From: Alphaproteobacteria bacterium
GTDB lineage: Bacteria > Pseudomonadota > Alphaproteobacteria > MPNO01
NCBI GenBank assembly: GCA_965248835.1
Contig: CBDFLJ010000001.1
Span: forward strand, 608,001 to 672,000
Length of the DNA: 64,000 nt
Direction of reading: 5' to 3'
Every line of letters starts with the position of its first letter. The stretch's first letter is position 1. The notes under the pieces are model-generated. The model was not told the DNA's origin, made no database searches, and saw only the letters and a program-made list of their open reading frames with translations. The position numbers were made by a program, and so were the translations under genes. This document shows positions 19,752 to 63,964 of this stretch, piece by piece.

Positions 19752-21155
19752 CTAATCCAGGAAGTCGGCCAGATCGACCGTCTCGTGGTTGAACGGCATC
19801 GCCGGGCGGAAGCGCTCGCGCGCCGGCAGGTCGCTGGCCGCCGGCATGGTCGCATCGATGATCGTCTTGGTGCCGATCCGGTACATCGCGCTCATCCCCG
19901 GCACGATGTCCGAGACGTTGTCGAGCGACCAGATCCGGGTGTTGGGGATCCGGATCACGTCGCGCTCGGCATGGACGCGGGTGGTCAGCGACCAGAAGAT
20001 CTGGCGCAAATCGCCGGCATCGATATCCTCGTCGACCGCGATGGCGAGCTTGGGATGGAGATAGGGGCTCGATAGCGCGGCCATCAGCGCGGTCTTGGCC
20101 TGGCCTTCGACCCGCGGGCGGAGCTTGAGTACGATCGCCATCAGCCCGGAGATGCCGAGAAGCCGGATGTCGCGCAGATCGAGCCCGCCCTCGACCGAGC
20201 GCAGGTGCTCGCTCACCACGGTCTCGATGCAGGTGGCGGTGATCGACTGGGTGTCGGTCATCGGGATGCCGCACTGCATCGAATAGAAGATCGGATCGGC
20301 CCGTCGGGTGATCGCCTTGACCCGGAAGATCTGGGTCGAGCCCTCCATCGCGTACGTCCCGCTGGCTTCGCCGAACGGCCCCTCGGGGGTCATTTGGTCG
20401 GTCGGCACCTCGCCCTCGATGACCATCTCGGCCTCCGCCGGCACTTCGAGGTCGATGGTCTCGCACTTGACCATGCGGATCGGGTCCTCGAGCAGGGCGC
20501 CGGCGATCGTCAGCTCGTCGAGCCCGTAGCTCGAGGTGAAGCCGGCGGCGTAGTAGAGCGCCGGATGGGCGCCGACGACCATCGCCACGGGCATCGGCTC
20601 GCCGCGGGCCTGATAGATCTGGAAGATCCTCAGCGCATGGCGCGGGCAGATCAGGAACCCGGTGCTGTCGGGCCCCAGGATCTGCTGGCGGTGGATCGAC
20701 ATGTTGCGGATGCCGGTCTCCGGGTCCTTGATGATCGCCATGCCCGAGGCGATGTAGGGCGCAGGGTCGTTCTCGGAATGCCACACGGCGGGGACCTTGG
20801 TCAGGTCCACATCGGCGCCGGTCAGCACGACCTCTTTCACCGGCGCCTGGGCGCGATCGACCGTCACCGGCGCGACCGGGCTGCGGACCCGCGCGCGAAG
20901 GGTCGGGATCAGCTCGTCGGGCGTGACGCCGAGCGCGATCGACCACTTCCTGCGGTCGGCGATCACCTGGCTGCACACCCGCCATCCGGGGTAGTCGGGA
21001 AGGTTCGCAAACAGCGCCGCCTTGCCCAGCGTGTCGTAGGTCTTCCACGACAGCGCGGAGACGTTCTCGTGGGGGTCGACCGGCTTGTTGAAGCGGATCA
21101 GCTCGCCCTGTTGCTCGAGGTTGCCGACATGGACCCGAATCGATTGTTCGCGCAT
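19752..21155 (-). CDS. UbiD-family prFMN-dependent (de)carboxylase (second, divergent paralogue)
   Basis: RNMSIHR, EGPFGEASGTY, AVDEDID, KTIIDAT. Confidence 0.92.
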   Translation of the reverse strand: MREQSIRVHVGNLEQQGELIRFNKPVDPHENVSALSWKTYDTLGKAALFANLPDYPGWRVCSQVIADRRKWSIALGVTPDELIPTLRARVRSPVAPVTVDRAQAPVKEVVLTGADVDLTKVPAVWHSENDPAPYIASGMAIIKDPETGIRNMSIHRQQILGPDSTGFLICPRHALRIFQIYQARGEPMPVAMVVGAHPALYYAAGFTSSYGLDELTIAGALLEDPIRMVKCETIDLEVPAEAEMVIEGEVPTDQMTPEGPFGEASGTYAMEGSTQIFRVKAITRRADPIFYSMQCGIPMTDTQSITATCIETVVSEHLRSVEGGLDLRDIRLLGISGLMAIVLKLRPRVEGQAKTALMAALSSPYLHPKLAIAVDEDIDAGDLRQIFWSLTTRVHAERDVIRIPNTRIWSLDNVSDIVPGMSAMYRIGTKTIIDATMPAASDLPARERFRPAMPFNHETVDLADFLD

Positions 21156-21302
21156 CTTCCGATCATCCTGCCGCCGGTCTGCACCGGCAGACACTGTCGG
21201 GCAGAGTAGCCGCCGGATCGCCGGGCCCGCAACCGCGGAGACCGAGATTTGCTCGTGGTCTCGATCCGAGCCCGGCGGCATTCGGCGTTCCGCCGCGCCT
21301 CA

Positions 21303-21781: not shown

Positions 21782-22822
21782 ATGGTGGAGACCTTGCTGC
21801 CGACGACCGTGGTGGGAAGCTATGTCCAGCCCGACTGGCTGGTCGATCGCGACAACCTCAAGGGCCGGCTGCCGCCGCGGGTGCGCGCCCGCGAGATGTG
21901 GAAGGTCGCCGGTTCCGACCTGGAAGAGGCCCAGGACACCGCCACGCTGGCCGCCATCCACGACATGGAGCAAGCCGGGGTCGACATCATCAGCGACGGC
22001 GAGATCCGGCGCGAGAGCTATTCCAACCGTTTCGCAACCGCGCTCGGCGGCATCGACATCCAGACCCCGGGAACCGCGATCGACCGGACCGGCCATGCCA
22101 ATCCGGTGCCGCGGATCGCCGGTCCCATCGTGCGGGCACGCCCGGTCGAGCTGCGCGACGCCGAATTCCTGGTCGCCAACACCGCCCGGATGACCAAGAT
22201 CACCATCCCGGGCCCGTTCACCATGACCCAGCAGGCCCAGAACGACCACTATTCCGACGACGAGGCGGCGGCGATGGACTATGCCGCGGCCGTCAACCAG
22301 GAGATCAAGGCGCTGTTCGCCGCCGGCATCGACGTCGTCCAGCTCGACGAGCCGTACATGCAGGCGCGCCCGGAGATCGCCAAGTCCTATGCCGTCAAGG
22401 CGATCAACCGCGCCCTGGAGGGCGTCGGGGGCACGACTGCGGTGCATCTGTGCTTCGGCTATGCGCACATCGTCCACGACCGGCCGAGCGGATACTCGTT
22501 CCTGCCCGAGCTCGAAGGCGCGGCGGTCGATCAGGTCTCGATCGAGGCGGCTCAGCCGGGCCTCGACCTCGCCATCCTGGAGCAGATGCCGACCAAGACC
22601 ATCATCCTGGGCGTCCTCAGCCTCGGCGATCCGCAGATCGAGACCGCCGAGACCGTCGCCGCCCGCATCCGCCGCGCGCTCGAGGTCCTGCCGCCGGAGC
22701 GCGTCGTGGTGGCGCCGGACTGCGGTATGAAATACATCAGCCGCGAGACCGCCTTCGGCAAGCTCAAGGCATTGGTCGAGGGCGCGAAGATCGTGCGCAG
22801 GGAGCTCGGCGGTAACGCTTGA
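21782..22822 (+). CDS. Single-domain cobalamin-independent methionine synthase II (MetE C-terminal-like) Zn enzyme
   Basis: PTTVVGSY, DIISDGEIRR, PGPFT, QLDEP, Zn ligands HLC / SIE / PDCG; no N-terminal folate-binding half. Confidence 0.9.
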   Translation: MVETLLPTTVVGSYVQPDWLVDRDNLKGRLPPRVRAREMWKVAGSDLEEAQDTATLAAIHDMEQAGVDIISDGEIRRESYSNRFATALGGIDIQTPGTAIDRTGHANPVPRIAGPIVRARPVELRDAEFLVANTARMTKITIPGPFTMTQQAQNDHYSDDEAAAMDYAAAVNQEIKALFAAGIDVVQLDEPYMQARPEIAKSYAVKAINRALEGVGGTTAVHLCFGYAHIVHDRPSGYSFLPELEGAAVDQVSIEAAQPGLDLAILEQMPTKTIILGVLSLGDPQIETAETVAARIRRALEVLPPERVVVAPDCGMKYISRETAFGKLKALVEGAKIVRRELGGNA

Positions 22823-22874
22823 CCTGTTCCGGCCGCGGATGGAAGATCGCAGCAACGCAAGAGCGGGATTCGAC

Positions 22875-23180
22875 ATGCAGAGGCAACACGACCTCGGCGG
22901 ACTGCCGGGCGGGTCGATCGAGACGAACTCGCCGCCGACCGCGCCCTGGGCGAAGCTGATCACGGCCACGGTCGGAGCGCTGCGCGAGCACAAGCTGATG
23001 ACCGTCGACGAGATGCGCCGCGCCTTGGAGGACCTGCCCAAGGAGCAGTACGACAGGGAATATTTCGAGCGCTGGGCCGAGGCGCTGTGCGACCTGTTGG
23101 AAGAAAAGGGTTTGCTGAGCCATGACGAGGTCAGCGAGCGCATGGCCGCGCTGCGCGGCACGCTGGCGGACGGGACATGA
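22875..23180 (+). CDS. Nitrile hydratase beta N-terminal-half protein (thiocyanate hydrolase ScnB-like)
   Basis: HDLGG, TVDEMRRALEDL, YFERW, LEEKGLL; alternative start 22839. Confidence 0.85.
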   Translation: MQRQHDLGGLPGGSIETNSPPTAPWAKLITATVGALREHKLMTVDEMRRALEDLPKEQYDREYFERWAEALCDLLEEKGLLSHDEVSERMAALRGTLADGT

Positions 23181-23479
23181 GTGAAGCCGCCACGGAGGCG
23201 CGCCGCTTCGCGGCCGGCGACCGGGTCAAGGTGGCGGTCACCCATCCGCCGGGTCATCGGCGCACCCCCTATTACATCCGCGGCAAGACCGGGGTGGTCG
23301 AGCGGTATTGCGGCGCCTTCCGCAACCCGGAGGAGCTCGCCTACGGCTTCAGCGGCGAGCCGCGGCGCCACCTCTACCGCGTCCGGTTTCCGCAAAGCGA
23401 GATCTGGCAGAATTACGACGGTCCGGCGCAGGACACGCTGGACCTGGAGGTCTTTCAACACTGGCTGGAAGAAGCCTAG
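23177..23479 (+). CDS. Nitrile hydratase beta C-terminal SH3-like protein (thiocyanate hydrolase ScnA-like)
   Basis: FAAGDRVKV, GHRRTPYYIRGKTG, LYRVRF, EIW, LEVFQHWLE. Confidence 0.88.
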   Translation: MSEAATEARRFAAGDRVKVAVTHPPGHRRTPYYIRGKTGVVERYCGAFRNPEELAYGFSGEPRRHLYRVRFPQSEIWQNYDGPAQDTLDLEVFQHWLEEA

Positions 23480-23489
23480 GAGAACCGGC

Positions 23490-24161
23490 ATGGCCGAAGA
23501 GGAACGCGGCGCAGGCGCGCACGCCCACGATCACGGTCACCCCCATACCCACGACCATGAGGTCGCACCGGAGAACCGCGACGTCGACGAGATCGGTCAT
23601 TACGAGCTCATGGCACGCGCCATCCGCGAACTGCTGATCGAAAAGGGCGTGGTGAGTGCGGGGGAAGTCCGCGCCCAGCTCGAGTTCATGGATTCGCGGG
23701 GCGAAGAGCTCGGCGCACAGATCGTTGCCCGGGCCTGGACCGATCCGGCCTATCGCGAGCGCCTGCTGGACGACGGGACCGCCGCGGCCGGCGAGTTCGG
23801 AATCGATATGGCCGGTGCCGAGCTGATCGTGGTCGAGAACACGCCCGCGGTCCACAACATGATCGTCTGCACCCTGTGCTCGTGCTATCCGCGCACGGTG
23901 CTGGGGCTGCCGCCGGACTGGTACAAATCGAAGTCCTACCGCTCGCGCGCGGTCATAGAGCCCCGCGCGGTGCTCGAGGAGTTCGGCACCACTGTCGATC
24001 AGGATGTCAGCGTCCGGGTGCACGACAGCAATGCCGACATGCGCTATCTGGTGCTGCCGATGCGGCCCGAGGGCACCGAAGGCTGGAGCGAGGATCGGCT
24101 GGCCACGCTGGTGAGCCGCGATTCCATGGTCGGCGTCACGCGCGCCAACAGCCCGGGCTGA
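23490..24161 (+). CDS. Cobalt-type nitrile hydratase alpha / thiocyanate hydrolase gamma (ScnC-like) subunit with His-rich N-terminus
   Basis: VCTLCSCYPR metal motif, ARAWTDP, WYKS..YRSR, RYLVLPMRPEGTEGW; AGGAG RBS. Confidence 0.93.
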   Translation: MAEEERGAGAHAHDHGHPHTHDHEVAPENRDVDEIGHYELMARAIRELLIEKGVVSAGEVRAQLEFMDSRGEELGAQIVARAWTDPAYRERLLDDGTAAAGEFGIDMAGAELIVVENTPAVHNMIVCTLCSCYPRTVLGLPPDWYKSKSYRSRAVIEPRAVLEEFGTTVDQDVSVRVHDSNADMRYLVLPMRPEGTEGWSEDRLATLVSRDSMVGVTRANSPG

Positions 24162-25064
24162 TCAAGCCCCGCTGCCGGCCGCGCGGCCGGCGGTCGCCAG
24201 CCAGATGCCGGTGAAGATCGCCGCCACGCCGGCCAGGTGATACCAGCCGGTCGTCTCTCCGAGGACGGTGACGGCGATCGCCGCGCCGAAGGCCGGCGTG
24301 AGATAGATGAAGTAGCCCGCCCGCGTCGCGCCCACCCGGGCGACGCCCGCCGCCCAGAAGAGCTGGGCCAGGACCGATGCGAACAGCGCGACATAGACGA
24401 TTGCGGCCAGCGCCGTCCAGGTCAGCGGCATCCCATCGCCGTTGGCGATTTCCCAGAGGTGCAGCGGGAAGGTCGTCACCGTGCCGACGAAGAACATCAC
24501 GGTGAGGAAGGCCGGCAGGCTCAGCGTCATCGGCCGGCGCGGCAGCAAGATCGAGAACAGGGCGTGGCAGAAGACGCCGAACCAGATCATCGCGTCGCCG
24601 ATATTGAGGCTGAAGCCGGACAAACCGGTGACCTCGCCCCGCAGCACGATCAGCACGAAGCCGAGCCCGCCGGCGATCAGCCCGAGGATCTGGCGCGCGC
24701 TGGCTGCGGTGCCGAGCACGATCATCGCGGCGATGATGATGTTCAGCGGCAGGGTGCCCTGGATCAGCGAGCCGTTGATCGCCTCGGTATGGTGCAGGCC
24801 GACGAAGATCAGCGCGCTGAAGGCGGTCATTCCCAGGAGGCCCAGCAGCAGCAGCATCCGCCAGGCCGCCAGCACCTCGCGGCGCAGCGCCCAGACCTCG
24901 CGCAGGCCGAACGGCAGCAGGATCAGCAGCGCGCCGAACGAGCGCCAGAAGGCGAGCGCCATCGGCGGCAGTAGATCGGCGACGGCGCGTCCGACGACGG
25001 TGTTGCCGGCGAAGAACAGCGCCGTTCCGGTCAGCGCCAGATAGGCGATCCAGTCGCGCCTCAT
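24162..25064 (-). CDS. DMT/EamA family transporter
   Basis: 10 TM pattern; AGNTVVGR, LAFWR, GVARVGATRAG, VLGE. Confidence 0.9.
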   Translation of the reverse strand: MRRDWIAYLALTGTALFFAGNTVVGRAVADLLPPMALAFWRSFGALLILLPFGLREVWALRREVLAAWRMLLLLGLLGMTAFSALIFVGLHHTEAINGSLIQGTLPLNIIIAAMIVLGTAASARQILGLIAGGLGFVLIVLRGEVTGLSGFSLNIGDAMIWFGVFCHALFSILLPRRPMTLSLPAFLTVMFFVGTVTTFPLHLWEIANGDGMPLTWTALAAIVYVALFASVLAQLFWAAGVARVGATRAGYFIYLTPAFGAAIAVTVLGETTGWYHLAGVAAIFTGIWLATAGRAAGSGA

Positions 25065-25116: not shown

Positions 25117-26298
25117 TCATTCAGCGGCTGTCGTCGCGTCCGCCGGCACCGGCTCGCCCAGGGGCCGCAGCGCCGGCATCACCTCGTCGGCGAACAGCCT
25201 GAGGTTCTTCTCGGTCAGCGCGCGCGGCAGGGTGCCGAACTGCAGCATGGTCACCAAATTGCCGTAGCCCATCTCGTCGAACCGCTGGGCCAGGATCTCC
25301 TTTACGGTCTGCGGGCTGCCGCAGACGAACATGCCGTTGCCGGTCAGCGTCCGGTAGGACAGGAACTGCTCGCGGACCTTGAACTTGGTCTCCATGACAT
25401 AGCGGTAGGACGCCATCGAGGAGTAGCCCGGCGGCAGCTTGTACTCGGCCGGGGAGCGGACGAACTTGTTGAAGAACGCTTCGATATGGGGCGCGGCCTC
25501 CCGCGCGGCGATTTCGTCGGTCTCGGCGACATAGACCGGCAGCGCCCAGCCAAGCTGGCCGGGCTCGGCCTCGTAGCCGTATTCCCCGGCCTGACGGACA
25601 TAGGCATCGAGGTTGCGCTTGACCGCCTCGGCCGGGTTGAAGGTGATCAGGTAGGTGTAGCGCCGGTCGGGATGGGCGGCCCATTCGTAGGTCTCGCGCG
25701 AGCCCTGGGAGGGGATCCAGATCGGCGGGTGCGGCTCCTGGTAGGGCCTGGGCCACAGGTTGACGTAGTTGAACCGGTAGTGCTTGCCGTCGAAGGCGAA
25801 CGGCCCGGTCTCGGTCCAGGCGCGCACGATCAGGTCGTGCGCCTCGTGGAAGCGGGCGTGGCTGAAGGACGGGTTGGCCATCGAGGCGTGATACTCGGTC
25901 CCCAGCCCGCGCACGAAGCCGGCGATGAACCGGCCCCCGGTCAGGTTGTCGAGCATCGCGAACTCTTCGGCGATGGTCAGCGGGTTGTCGGTGATCGGCA
26001 GCGCGCGCCCCAACACGCAGACCTTGCCGTTCTTGATGCTGCGTGACAGCGCGCCCGCCAGGACGTTGGGCGCGGGCATCATGCCGTAGGCGGTCTGGTG
26101 GTGCTCGTTCACGCACACCCCGTCGAAGCCCAGCGCATCGGCGAGCTCGAGCTCGTCGAGATAGCGGTGATAGAGGCCGTGGCCGAGCCTGGGGTCGTAG
26201 TAGCTGTTGGGCAGTGTCAGGTAGGCCGCCTCGTAGTCCGCGTCGTAGTCGAGGTCGAGATGCGCGTACGGCATCAGGTGGAAGAAAAAGAACTTCAT
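25117..26298 (-). CDS. LLM-class (luciferase-like) flavin-dependent monooxygenase
   Basis: GFDGVCVNEHH, AEEFAMLDNLTGGR, WPRPYQEPHPPIW, LFADEVMP. Confidence 0.92.
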   Translation of the reverse strand: MKFFFFHLMPYAHLDLDYDADYEAAYLTLPNSYYDPRLGHGLYHRYLDELELADALGFDGVCVNEHHQTAYGMMPAPNVLAGALSRSIKNGKVCVLGRALPITDNPLTIAEEFAMLDNLTGGRFIAGFVRGLGTEYHASMANPSFSHARFHEAHDLIVRAWTETGPFAFDGKHYRFNYVNLWPRPYQEPHPPIWIPSQGSRETYEWAAHPDRRYTYLITFNPAEAVKRNLDAYVRQAGEYGYEAEPGQLGWALPVYVAETDEIAAREAAPHIEAFFNKFVRSPAEYKLPPGYSSMASYRYVMETKFKVREQFLSYRTLTGNGMFVCGSPQTVKEILAQRFDEMGYGNLVTMLQFGTLPRALTEKNLRLFADEVMPALRPLGEPVPADATTAAE

Positions 26299-27080
26299 GA
26301 CGGGTTGCTTTCCACGATTTCCAGCACGCCGTCCAGGAACGCCTCGGTCTTCTCCTGGTGGGGCAGGTGGCCGCATTCCTCGATCACGCGCAGCCGGGCG
26401 CCGGGGATCAGGTCCTGGAACGCCTTGGCATAGGGCAGCGGGATGATCCTGTCCTCGGCCCCCCACAGGATCATCGTGGGGACGGCGATCCGGTGCAGCC
26501 ACTTGGGCAGGTCCGGATTGCAAAACCGCGGGTTCCAGGCGAGCCTGGCCGTCGTGAACAGGTTCTTGAGCGCGATGTCGGCCTCTTCCTCGCTCGGCGG
26601 CGCCGCCAGGCGCCGCTCCGCGATGGCCTGATCGAAGAACGTGTTGCGCACCCGCGCATCGGGCTTCCACAGGAAGATATCGCCCTTGGGAACCCCGGCG
26701 ACCTCGATCCCGGCAGGCGAGACCAGGGTGAGCGTGCGGAACCGCTTGGCATCGCGGACCGCGATCTCGCAGGCGAGCCAGCCGCCGAGCGAATTGCCGA
26801 CCACATGGACCTCGCCGGGGTCGAGCGCATCCAGCAGGTCGAGATAGAAATAGACCAGATCCGACATCGAATCGAGCCAATCGGGGGTGTCGGAGCGGCC
26901 GAACCCGGGGTGGCTCGGGACGATCACCGAGAAGCGCGTGGCCAGCCGGTCCATGAACGGCGCCCACGCCGCGGCCCCGCCGGCGCCGTGGAGGAACATG
27001 AGAGGCGGTCCCGCGCCGCCGCGCAGCAGTTCGATCCGGCAGCCGCGGATGTCGATCATCTCCGATATGTGCTCGCTCAT
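26295..27080 (-). CDS. Alpha/beta-fold hydrolase
   Basis: FLHGAGG, HPGFG, GNSLGG nucleophile elbow, WGAED, CGHLPH. Confidence 0.92.
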   Translation of the reverse strand: MSEHISEMIDIRGCRIELLRGGAGPPLMFLHGAGGAAAWAPFMDRLATRFSVIVPSHPGFGRSDTPDWLDSMSDLVYFYLDLLDALDPGEVHVVGNSLGGWLACEIAVRDAKRFRTLTLVSPAGIEVAGVPKGDIFLWKPDARVRNTFFDQAIAERRLAAPPSEEEADIALKNLFTTARLAWNPRFCNPDLPKWLHRIAVPTMILWGAEDRIIPLPYAKAFQDLIPGARLRVIEECGHLPHQEKTEAFLDGVLEIVESNPS

Positions 27081-27117
27081 GACGGACGATTGTTCGTCCC
27101 GCACGCGGCCGCGTCAA

Positions 27118-63597: not shown

Positions 63598-63770
63598 CGG
63601 TCCCCAATTCCGGCTGTTGTTGGCAACCCAGCCGGTTGAGGCTGTTTATACCATGCCCGGCTTCCGTCGCGCCAACCGCCGCCCCGCGACAATGTTGACG
63701 TTCACAATCCAGGCAATAAGATGGCCTTCGTTCGGCCCCGATGGCTGATCGCTGCGTTACACAGTCGAAT

Positions 63771-63847
63771 CCTGCGGGAGAGGTCGGCGGTCTGCCGGCG
63801 CCGAAGGAGCAAGCGTCCCGGAAACTCTCAGGCAAAGGGACCGCAGG
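63771..63847 (+). ncRNA. Glycine riboswitch aptamer 1
   Basis: CCTGCGG/CCGCAGG P1, GGAGAG, CGCCGAAGGAGCAA, AAACTCTCAGGCAAA. Confidence 0.92.
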
Positions 63848-63856
63848 GGGATGTGT

Positions 63857-63964
63857 CTCTGGAAAGCAGTCCGGTCCGTCTTGGGCGGGTCGGCCTCACC
63901 GAAGGGGTAAGCCCGCACCCGGCGACAGGCCGGGCGGGGGAATCTCTCAGGTCCACCGACAGAG
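63857..63964 (+). ncRNA. Glycine riboswitch aptamer 2 (probably precedes gcvT beyond the window)
   Basis: CTCTGGAAAG, CACCGAAGGGGTAA, AATCTCTCAGG, closing CAGAG. Confidence 0.92.

Follow-up and report, generated by a model that had tools for sequence, protein, structure and literature searches.

In thiocyanate hydrolases (SCNases) of the Thiobacillus thioparus type, the polypeptide corresponding to the beta subunit of nitrile hydratases (NHases) is split, and the gene order is the same as in the locus described below; in ToyJKL, the gene for alpha comes first. According to the sections of PMC7329996 available to us, ToyJKL (toyocamycin) is a three-subunit nitrile hydratase with a split beta, and the cobalt NHase of Streptomyces canus CGMCC 13662 is encoded in the order anhD, anhE, and anhA, where AnhD and AnhE are the N- and C-terminal parts of beta, respectively. 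The S. canus subunits are about 10, 11, and 21 kDa in size, the enzyme acts on acetamiprid, thiacloprid, and benzonitrile, and no activator gene accompanies it (PMC7329996). We analyzed a stretch of 64,000 nucleotides (nt) from an alphaproteobacterial genome (positions 608,001 to 672,000 of contig CBDFLJ010000001.1, assembly GCA_965248835.1), called the window below, in which the three genes of such a hydratase are preceded by a gene for a MetE-like zinc enzyme related to MesD. This locus is a real, lineage-restricted operon that joins two separable modules, in which a three-subunit nitrile hydratase of an already known kind is supplemented by a MesD-like gene, within one bacterial order. A literature search found no description of a pairing of nitrile hydratase with a MetE-like protein, and an earlier note on this DNA had remarked that no described pathway with such a pairing is known.

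Four genes, encoding the MetE-like protein, the N-half (betaN) and C-half (betaC) of the beta subunit, and the alpha subunit, are tightly spaced on the forward strand, as read from the list of open reading frames (ORFs) and the junction sequences (Table 1). The start codon of betaC overlaps the stop codon of betaN as ATGA, and AGGAG is located 7 nt 5′ of the alpha start. The Pfam scores for Meth_synt_2, NHase_beta_N, NHase_beta_C, and NHase_alpha (PF02979, cut-off 27.2) were 131.4, 62.9, 80.4, and 272.6 bits, respectively. ORFs, Pfam matches, and motifs confirmed what the earlier note had read here, namely four co-oriented genes, a split beta, an ATGA overlap, and a CTLCSC subunit, and the limits it had given, 21782-24161, were correct. 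In eight relatives, betaN begins with MQRQHDMGG immediately after GGAGGAC, and the counterpart in the window, MQRQHDLGG, begins at the ATG at 22875; because of this shared N-terminus and the GGAGGAC ribosome-binding site of the relatives, 22875 is a likelier start than 22839. Depending on the start, betaN has 101-113 amino acid (aa) residues, and the spacer between the stop of the MetE-like gene and betaN is 16 nt (22839) or 52 nt (22875). The corresponding spacers were 5-48 nt in the eight relatives and thus, with the 52 nt of the window, 5-52 nt in nine loci. A terminator scan found no terminator-like site on the forward strand between the genes of the operon. Judged from their spacing and conservation, the four genes are probably co-transcribed.

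Table 1. Features of the operon and its flanks (positions in the window)
Feature	Position	Strand	Basis and remarks
MetE-like (Meth_synt_2) single-domain Zn enzyme, MesD-related	21779 (GTG) or 21782 (ATG)..22822	+	Pfam; 347/346 aa
NHase beta N-half (betaN), AnhD-like	22875..23180 (longest ORF from 22839)	+	NHase_beta_N; start inferred from 8 relatives
NHase beta C-half (betaC), AnhE-like	23177..23479	+	NHase_beta_C; 100 aa
Co-type NHase alpha, His-rich N-terminus, CTLCSCYPR metal site	23490..24161	+	TIGR01323, PF02979; 223 aa
EamA/DMT (drug/metabolite transporter) family transporter, convergent	24162..25064	-	Pfam EamA 118.4 bits
UbiD-family decarboxylase (ubiD2), divergent from MetE-like gene	19752..21281	-	TIGR00148 279.9 bits
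Luciferase-like monooxygenase	25117..26298	-	Pfam; overlaps alpha/beta hydrolase gene
Alpha/beta hydrolase	26295..27104	-	Pfam; overlaps luciferase-like monooxygenase gene

The earlier note had matched the split beta and the gene order to scnB-scnA-scnC and had called the hydratase an enzyme of the SCNase type. The same architecture is found in the characterized nitrile hydratase AnhDEA of S. canus, as described in the available sections of PMC7329996, and therefore fits a proven nitrile hydratase equally well. The alternative that the genes encode a true thiocyanate hydrolase ScnB/ScnA/ScnC, converting SCN- to COS and NH3, was weighed against profile and structure matches. The alpha subunit scored 256.1 bits on TIGR01323, the NHase-alpha equivalog, above the cut-off of 249.85, but 222.1 bits on TIGR03887, the SCNase-gamma equivalog, below the cut-off of 291.45. 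As ScnC references for calibrating these scores, two plasmid-borne scnC genes annotated by NCBI, from Azospirillum and Roseomonas, were used; they scored 356.8 and 359.2 bits on TIGR03887 and 211 bits on TIGR01323; the alpha subunit of a Streptomyces three-gene locus scored 231 and 267.5 bits and a classical Klebsiella alpha 191 and 320 bits on TIGR03887 and TIGR01323, respectively. Among solved structures, alpha, betaN, and betaC were matched best by chains of the Pseudomonas putida cobalt NHase, with 209.3, 28.9, and 59.3 bits, respectively; for alpha, an engineered, duplicate-containing chain scored slightly higher than the P. putida chain. SCNase gamma matched the window alpha with 195.8 bits, and SCNase alpha matched betaC with 36.6 bits, against 59.3 bits for the C-half of P. 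putida beta. SCNase beta gave no match to betaN at E <= 0.01 among the solved structures, and over the 61-residue active-site stretch of alpha, SCNase gamma ranked last among 35 matches.

The metal site of alpha, IVCTLCSCYPRT, aligned with VCTLCSCYPW of solved cobalt NHases and contains the motif C-T-L-C-S-C-Y, in which Thr and Tyr mark the cobalt type. The His-rich N-terminus of alpha has a counterpart in the P. putida chain, and arginine positions of beta are kept relative to that enzyme (DEMRRALE/DEFRHSIE and RGKTG/RGKVG in the alignments). These comparisons suggest that the hydratase is a three-subunit cobalt nitrile hydratase that is closer to NHases than to SCNase.

To place it among its relatives, 110 loci around alpha homologues were fetched, 80 from metagenomes and 30 from genomes of the class, including that of the window. 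The order betaN-betaC-alpha with a split beta was found in 79 of the 80 loci that showed all three parts (one of these 80 came from genome G240); the other 30 were mostly cut-off contigs. An alpha homologue was present in 133 of 401 sampled genomes of Alphaproteobacteria, and the 29 loci other than that of the window from the best class genomes were all of the split-beta CSCYPR type or close to it. Plasmid records of a Streptomyces and a Planktothrix showed the identical three-gene layout. In annotated records, the beta halves are labeled "SH3-like domain-containing protein" or "nitrile hydratase", so that such operons are easily missed or mistaken for SCNase.

In place of the CTLCSCYPW of classical Co-type enzymes, the window alpha has CTLCSCYPR. 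CSCYPR was found in 118 of 119 locus motifs and in all 120 listed homologues, and its arginine is also present in annotated ScnC and in alpha subunits of Streptomyces, Rhizobium, Burkholderia, and Planktothrix. CSCYPR (window 23874-23900) versus CSCYPW cleanly divides the split-beta clade, including annotated ScnC, from the classical two-subunit Co-type enzymes. By HMMER coordinates, assuming a gapless alignment, this arginine falls on position 136 of the T. thioparus gamma chain; gamma-Arg136 is, we assume, part of the SCNase pocket, and a literature search on the residue name gave no confirmation. The arginine shared with ScnC would fit a thiocyanate hydrolase, but the residue, three positions past the last metal cysteine, is not diagnostic of SCNase because it is clade-wide (118 of 119), Streptomyces-type three-gene hydratases included.

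A quick maximum-likelihood tree of alpha subunits (52 rows, one of them from G240), with support from the Shimodaira-Hasegawa-like approximate likelihood ratio test (SH-aLRT) only, separated six classical two-subunit alphas from the other 46 rows with a support of 100. The two ScnC rows lie within the 46 and thus in the same clade as the window alpha, but they form a long branch of their own (length 1.07, support 100), and the window alpha groups with its relatives and marine metagenome loci, apart from ScnC. The comparison with ScnC by tree, within the reach of a quick tree and two annotated ScnC, therefore placed the window alpha outside the ScnC branch. On sequence evidence, the hydratase is broad SCNase kin but an ordinary member of the clade, outside the specialized ScnC offshoot. 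The SCNase-type assignment of the earlier note thus stands for the split beta, the N-half, C-half, and alpha order, the shared clade, and the arginine after CSCYP, and fails on TIGR03887 and on the best matches, which are to the P. putida cobalt NHase; we consider a true thiocyanate hydrolase highly improbable.

Both annotated scnC genes are preceded by one fused 283-aa beta-like gene, unlike the split scnB/scnA, and this gene is labeled "SH3-like domain-containing protein" (L202 4045-5687; L205 3038-4687). Sulfite-exporter and cobalt-transporter genes adjoin both of them.

For the predicted nitrile hydratase, the alpha subunit would bind a non-corrin Co(III) through CTLCSC, and, by analogy with solved relatives, two of its cysteines would be oxidized and held by conserved arginines supplied by both beta halves. 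The enzyme would convert an organic nitrile R-CN to the amide R-CONH2, and the invariant arginine after CSCYP suggests that a polar or anionic group is close to the nitrile. Neither an activator nor an accessory gene was found in the operon by ORFs and Pfam, where the next gene after alpha is the convergent EamA gene; betaN gave a weak match to TIGR03889, an accessory-protein model (E = 1.6e-4). Maturation probably proceeds, by analogy with S. canus, via betaN and the His-rich N-terminus of alpha and not via an activator. Elsewhere in the same genome, a 182-aa protein (C1:992659-993978) showed a partial NHase_alpha match of 64.5 bits in two short stretches and a weak hit to a Frankia peptide; its gene lies between genes for a 2OG-Fe(II) (2-oxoglutarate/iron) oxygenase and a BD-FAE-type hydrolase, and it could be an NHLP-type leader-like protein.

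The MetE-like protein scored 20.5 bits on Meth_synt_1, below the cut-off of 27, and therefore lacks the folate-binding half, as the earlier note had stated; with 347 aa and no N-terminal Meth_synt_1 domain, it is not a full-length MetE. Its best solved relative was 3RPD (187.8 bits), which is treated as a MesD in the available sections of PMC7857596. The zinc ligands H223-x-C225, E256, and C315 are present in the alignment with 3RPD, and Ser14, Glu75, and Asp190, which correspond to residues binding homocysteine or selenomethionine at its amino-acid end, are kept. The MesD-type Tyr228 is also kept, and among 15 paralogues in the genome, only the window protein and one other have this tyrosine. 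Both the MesD-specific tyrosine and the homocysteine-binding residues are named in the sections of PMC7857596 at hand. MesD requires MesX (DUF1852, PF08908), normally encoded by an adjacent gene. MesX gave no match in the genome of the window or in five orthologue-bearing genomes, and as a positive control, it was found in 2 of 151 class genomes. The results suggest that the most likely chemistry is a zinc-activated methylation of homocysteine or a close analogue; the enzyme would activate and methylate homocysteine or a very similar amino-acid thiol, with a methyl donor that is neither folate nor dependent on MesX.

A full MetH is encoded in the genome, in which no Meth_synt_1 domain was found; given available B12, methionine synthesis is therefore independent of the MetE-like gene. 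No riboswitch was found upstream of this gene in the window or in 11 representative orthologue loci, which gives no clue to methionine- or B12-linked control. The family is large: at least 8000 proteins, with automatic names only, matched the window protein at E <= 1e-30, and identities among members from several phyla are 63-89%. Of the 401 sampled class genomes, 41, including that of the window and G240, have a close homologue (E <= 1e-110). The genome of the window itself has 23 Pfam matches to Meth_synt_2, corresponding to about 15-20 genes. Relatives hold up to 15 copies of a MetE-like type of about 400 aa.

The linkage of the two modules was examined from both sides. From the side of the MetE-like gene, a pattern scan provided 80 genome loci among the matches listed, and hydratase genes followed in seven of them, all metagenome-assembled genomes (MAGs) labeled Defluviicoccus or alphaproteobacterial, with 82-86% identity. 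The fetched DNA of the other 73 loci contained no hydratase genes; 72 have other neighbors, and one ends at the MetE-like gene and is hence uninformative. Neighbors across the 80 loci included citrate-synthase-like (21), AMP-binding (18), GTP cyclohydrolase I (13), and TauD (13) genes, two loci (L002 and L004) have yet other neighbors, and no universal neighbor of the family emerged. Two unlinked MetE-like copies are 81-83% identical to the window protein, and in a quick tree of 83 rows, nine linked copies fell inside one well-supported set of 12 that also holds these two. Linked and unlinked proteins are equally conserved.

From the side of the hydratase, a home-made Meth_synt_2 profile detected a Meth_synt_2 gene in 3 of 58 loci with long flanks, and none in the other 55. 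One of the three is an orthologue of the window gene (L091); the other two belong to different subfamilies, lie on the opposite strand with intervening genes, and are not operonic. Within the order of the window, 31 genomes were searched and 26 hydratase loci were found. The MetE-like gene was located directly upstream and co-oriented in 17 of the 26 loci, in three of five families: 11 of 11 and 1 of 1 in two genera of the family of the window, 2 of 2 in a second family, and 3 of 3 in a third. The unlinked loci comprised all seven of two further families, and the remaining two came from two further genera of the window's own family. The gap between the MetE-like gene and the hydratase is 0.8 kb in one genome of the same genus and 2.5 kb in one genus of the same family, and three genomes of the order, from three families including that of the window, have the two genes at distant positions. 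Co-conservation, which the earlier note had put forward as a check, was thus seen in 17 of the 26 loci from the order, but it was broken in members of the order that keep both genes and unseen outside the order. The junction is therefore old, and it probably arose a single time and was kept in many, though not all, descendants.

Co-occurrence at the genome level was also considered as support for a functional tie and was rejected. Among class genomes with a MetE-like homologue, 35 of 41 also hold an NHase alpha, compared with 133 of 401 overall (33 of 39 when the genome of the window and G240 are left out). Two unrelated control genes from the window co-occurred with NHase alpha in 38 of 80 and 39 of 69 genomes (G040 is among the control-positive genomes), and NHase alpha was present in 29 of 41 genomes of at least 3.5 Mb among those with readable size, against which the excess is not significant (p = 0.22). 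In other phyla and classes, 7 of 10 orthologue-bearing genomes hold an NHase alpha, a count without a matched baseline for comparison.

We lean, with some reserve, toward reading the locus as one transcription unit of two separable modules, an AnhDEA-type cobalt NHase and a MesD-related zinc enzyme, that were joined once. The joining would have occurred in an ancestor within one alphaproteobacterial order, and the modules would have been co-transcribed there since. Each module is also widespread on its own, and a substrate common to both is therefore not required. Several observations weigh against this reading. The seven linked loci among 80 are not an unbiased rate, because the scan missed linked genomes that were found later. 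In the other linked families, alpha is 66-72% and the MetE-like protein 66-79% identical to the window proteins, and the adjacency outlived the insertion of one to three extra betaN-like genes between the modules in the two other linked families and one genus of the window's own family; persistence across family divergence and insertions speaks for selection that favors co-expression and thus, perhaps, for one pathway shared by both modules. In addition, a second contig of the same genome (2544600-2548050) carries an orphan 103-aa betaN-like gene, 43% identical to betaN, 75 bp from and divergent to a 405-aa MetE-like gene.

These observations bear on the pathway that the earlier note had proposed, in which both enzymes work one after the other on a single C-N/S compound. 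In the form weighed here, a methyl or alkyl group would be moved by the MetE-like enzyme between the compound and a thiol such as homocysteine, and the hydratase would then hydrate the C-N triple bond. Candidate substrates would be methyl or other organic thiocyanates, or an S-, N-, or O-methylated nitrile. In such an undescribed two-step route for a methylated C-N compound, the zinc enzyme would transfer the methyl group to homocysteine, forming methionine independently of folate, B12, and MesX; the nitrile or thiocyanate left over would be hydrated by the cobalt enzyme, and the DMT transporter would carry the substrate or product. Besides the linkage in 17 of 26 loci despite inserted genes, the short spacers between the MetE-like gene and betaN and the second adjacency of a betaN-like and a MetE-like gene are consistent with it, as are the presence of MetH, which leaves the MetE-like gene free for another role, and the metal-site arginine common to the window alpha and ScnC. 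However, the proteins are equally conserved with and without linkage, with the 81-83% identical unlinked copies in one well-supported clade with linked ones; three genomes of the order keep both genes without linkage; linkage is absent from 55 of 58 hydratase loci elsewhere, where the two non-orthologous exceptions are other subfamilies on the opposite strand; and the co-occurrence does not exceed the rate in large genomes. The inference of a shared pathway is thus favored by linkage that persists in the order and opposed by modules that separate freely elsewhere and by unlinked copies that are unchanged. We regard both the sequential action of the two enzymes and the two-step route as tentative possibilities that are doubtful at present.

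The second adjacency and the extra betaN-like genes also bear on another alternative, a physical or maturation link, in which betaN-like proteins, as homologues of NHase activators and metallochaperones, would be partners of MetE-fold enzymes, or vice versa; the MetE-like gene would then serve the assembly of the hydratase or the handling of metal and not chemistry on a substrate common to both. The 405-aa protein is of the YxjG/1YPX type and 26% identical to the MetE-like protein of the window; the orphan betaN-like gene overlaps the start of the following acyl-CoA synthetase gene (PRK12582), and neither betaC nor alpha was found near it. The genome of the window thus has two independent betaN-like/MetE-like adjacencies, and the second pair is also adjacent in one genome of the same genus. 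In relatives, the MetE-like gene and betaC are separated by two to four betaN-like genes in tandem (L338 4604-5810; L339 1640-2371; L282), with one to three extra copies right after the MetE-like gene, and eight marine metagenome loci have one extra 109-aa betaN-like ORF 5′ of betaN. These extra genes may be accessory or chaperone copies; the sections of PMC7329996 available to us describe AnhD, the betaN of S. canus, as a metal and subunit-swapping chaperone. On the other hand, a betaN search found no orphan copy in the genomes of another genus that hold five orthologues of the 405-aa gene (81-83%), the loci of which were not themselves checked, and the second adjacency is therefore seen only in the genus of the window. 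Given some 20 MetE-like genes in each genome, a betaN-like/MetE-like adjacency has a chance probability of roughly 1 in 100. The adjacencies hint weakly at a link of betaN-like with MetE-fold proteins, and a physical or maturation link is, in our estimate, very unlikely to explain the operon.

The two modules, taken as a lineage-restricted junction, have different consequences depending on whether a substrate is shared. If it is, the locus would represent a new route that joins nitrile or thiocyanate breakdown to methionine synthesis, and the two-step route, if true, would name a methyl donor for the very large MesX-less MesD-like family. Otherwise, the operon is that of an ordinary nitrile hydratase, to which a passenger gene is added. 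Clues to the methyl donor of the MetE-like family are few, and an operon partner retained in three families is among them; split-beta CSCYPR hydratases are common among Alphaproteobacteria.

The genes around the operon were compared across the same loci. Of the 44 loci that extend 2.5 kb or more beyond the hydratase on its downstream side, 8 have an EamA homologue there, and homologues are also present in relatives from three families. In the window, the stop codon TGA of alpha directly abuts the stop codon of the convergent EamA gene (TGATCA, 24159-24164), and there is therefore no intergenic space and no visible terminator between them. UbiD-family orthologues with 80-88% identity were located upstream in all seven linked genome loci and in one genome of the same genus that was examined. 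UbiD copies (65-77%) adjoined the hydratase without an intervening MetE-like gene in 6 of 110 other loci, and five of these six are metagenome contigs. The luciferase-like/hydrolase pair was next to the hydratase in six of the seven linked loci and in three further genomes of the same family. An acidobacterial MAG (L034 3864-7026) has a MetE-like orthologue (67%) in divergent orientation to a hydrolase/luciferase-like pair, the members of which are 53% and 62% identical to those of the window, respectively; no hydratase is present, and the same three gene families are thus neighbors in a distant lineage.

A tblastn search of the genome of the window gave about 38 UbiD-family, 32 Rieske-oxygenase alpha, 24 luciferase-like, and 20 alpha/beta-hydrolase genes and at least 15 MetE-like genes. 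MetE-like paralogues near UbiD, Rieske, luciferase-like monooxygenase, and hydrolase genes in this genome numbered 3, 2, 3, and 2 of 15, respectively, against 0.8-1.4 expected, indicating no enrichment. A paralogous cluster at C1:1941244-1948350 resembles the region 5′ of the operon and consists of two UbiD genes (-), a Rieske alpha gene (+, product 48% identical to that of the window), a MetE-like gene (+), and another Rieske gene. In the wider window, a catabolic region gives way to housekeeping genes. A pair of neighboring glycine riboswitch aptamers (RF00504; 70.4 and 37.9 bits) was located at 63765-63964 (+), near the end of the window.

Comparison with the known systems summarizes the position of the locus. 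The classical cobalt NHase of P. putida (PDB 3QXE) is the top solved relative of all subunits and shares the His-rich alpha N-terminus, CTLCSCY, and the beta arginines, but the classical enzymes have a single beta gene, an accessory-protein gene, and CSCYPW, and they form a separate clade (SH-aLRT 100). SCNase ScnB/ScnA/ScnC resembles the window hydratase in its homologous subunits, in CTLCSC followed by YPR in annotated ScnC, and in belonging to the same broad clade; it differs in that the window alpha fails the ScnC equivalog and lies off the long ScnC branch, with subunits closer to NHases, and in that the two annotated ScnC loci have a fused beta-like gene instead of a split one. The MetE-like protein resembles MesD of the MesD/MesX system in its single-domain MetE catalytic fold, with 3RPD as the best relative, in its zinc ligands, in the conserved Ser/Glu/Asp and Tyr, and in the aerobic type of its genome. 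It differs in the missing MesX, as judged from its own genome and five orthologue-bearing genomes, and its 187.8 bits were obtained against 3RPD, whereas the orthologue threshold of 390 bits in the available sections of PMC7857596 refers to another reference, ACIAD3523. A Streptomyces plasmid locus, which stood in for S. canus in the comparison of sequences, differs in having an aquaporin gene and a HoxN cobalt transporter gene downstream, not EamA, and no MetE-like gene; it shares with the window the same layout, CSCYPR, and the same alpha clade. S. canus AnhDEA itself, as far as described in the available sections of PMC7329996, is like the window hydratase in its split beta, its betaN-betaC-alpha order, the lack of an activator, and similar subunit sizes (101-113, 100, and 223 aa in the window).

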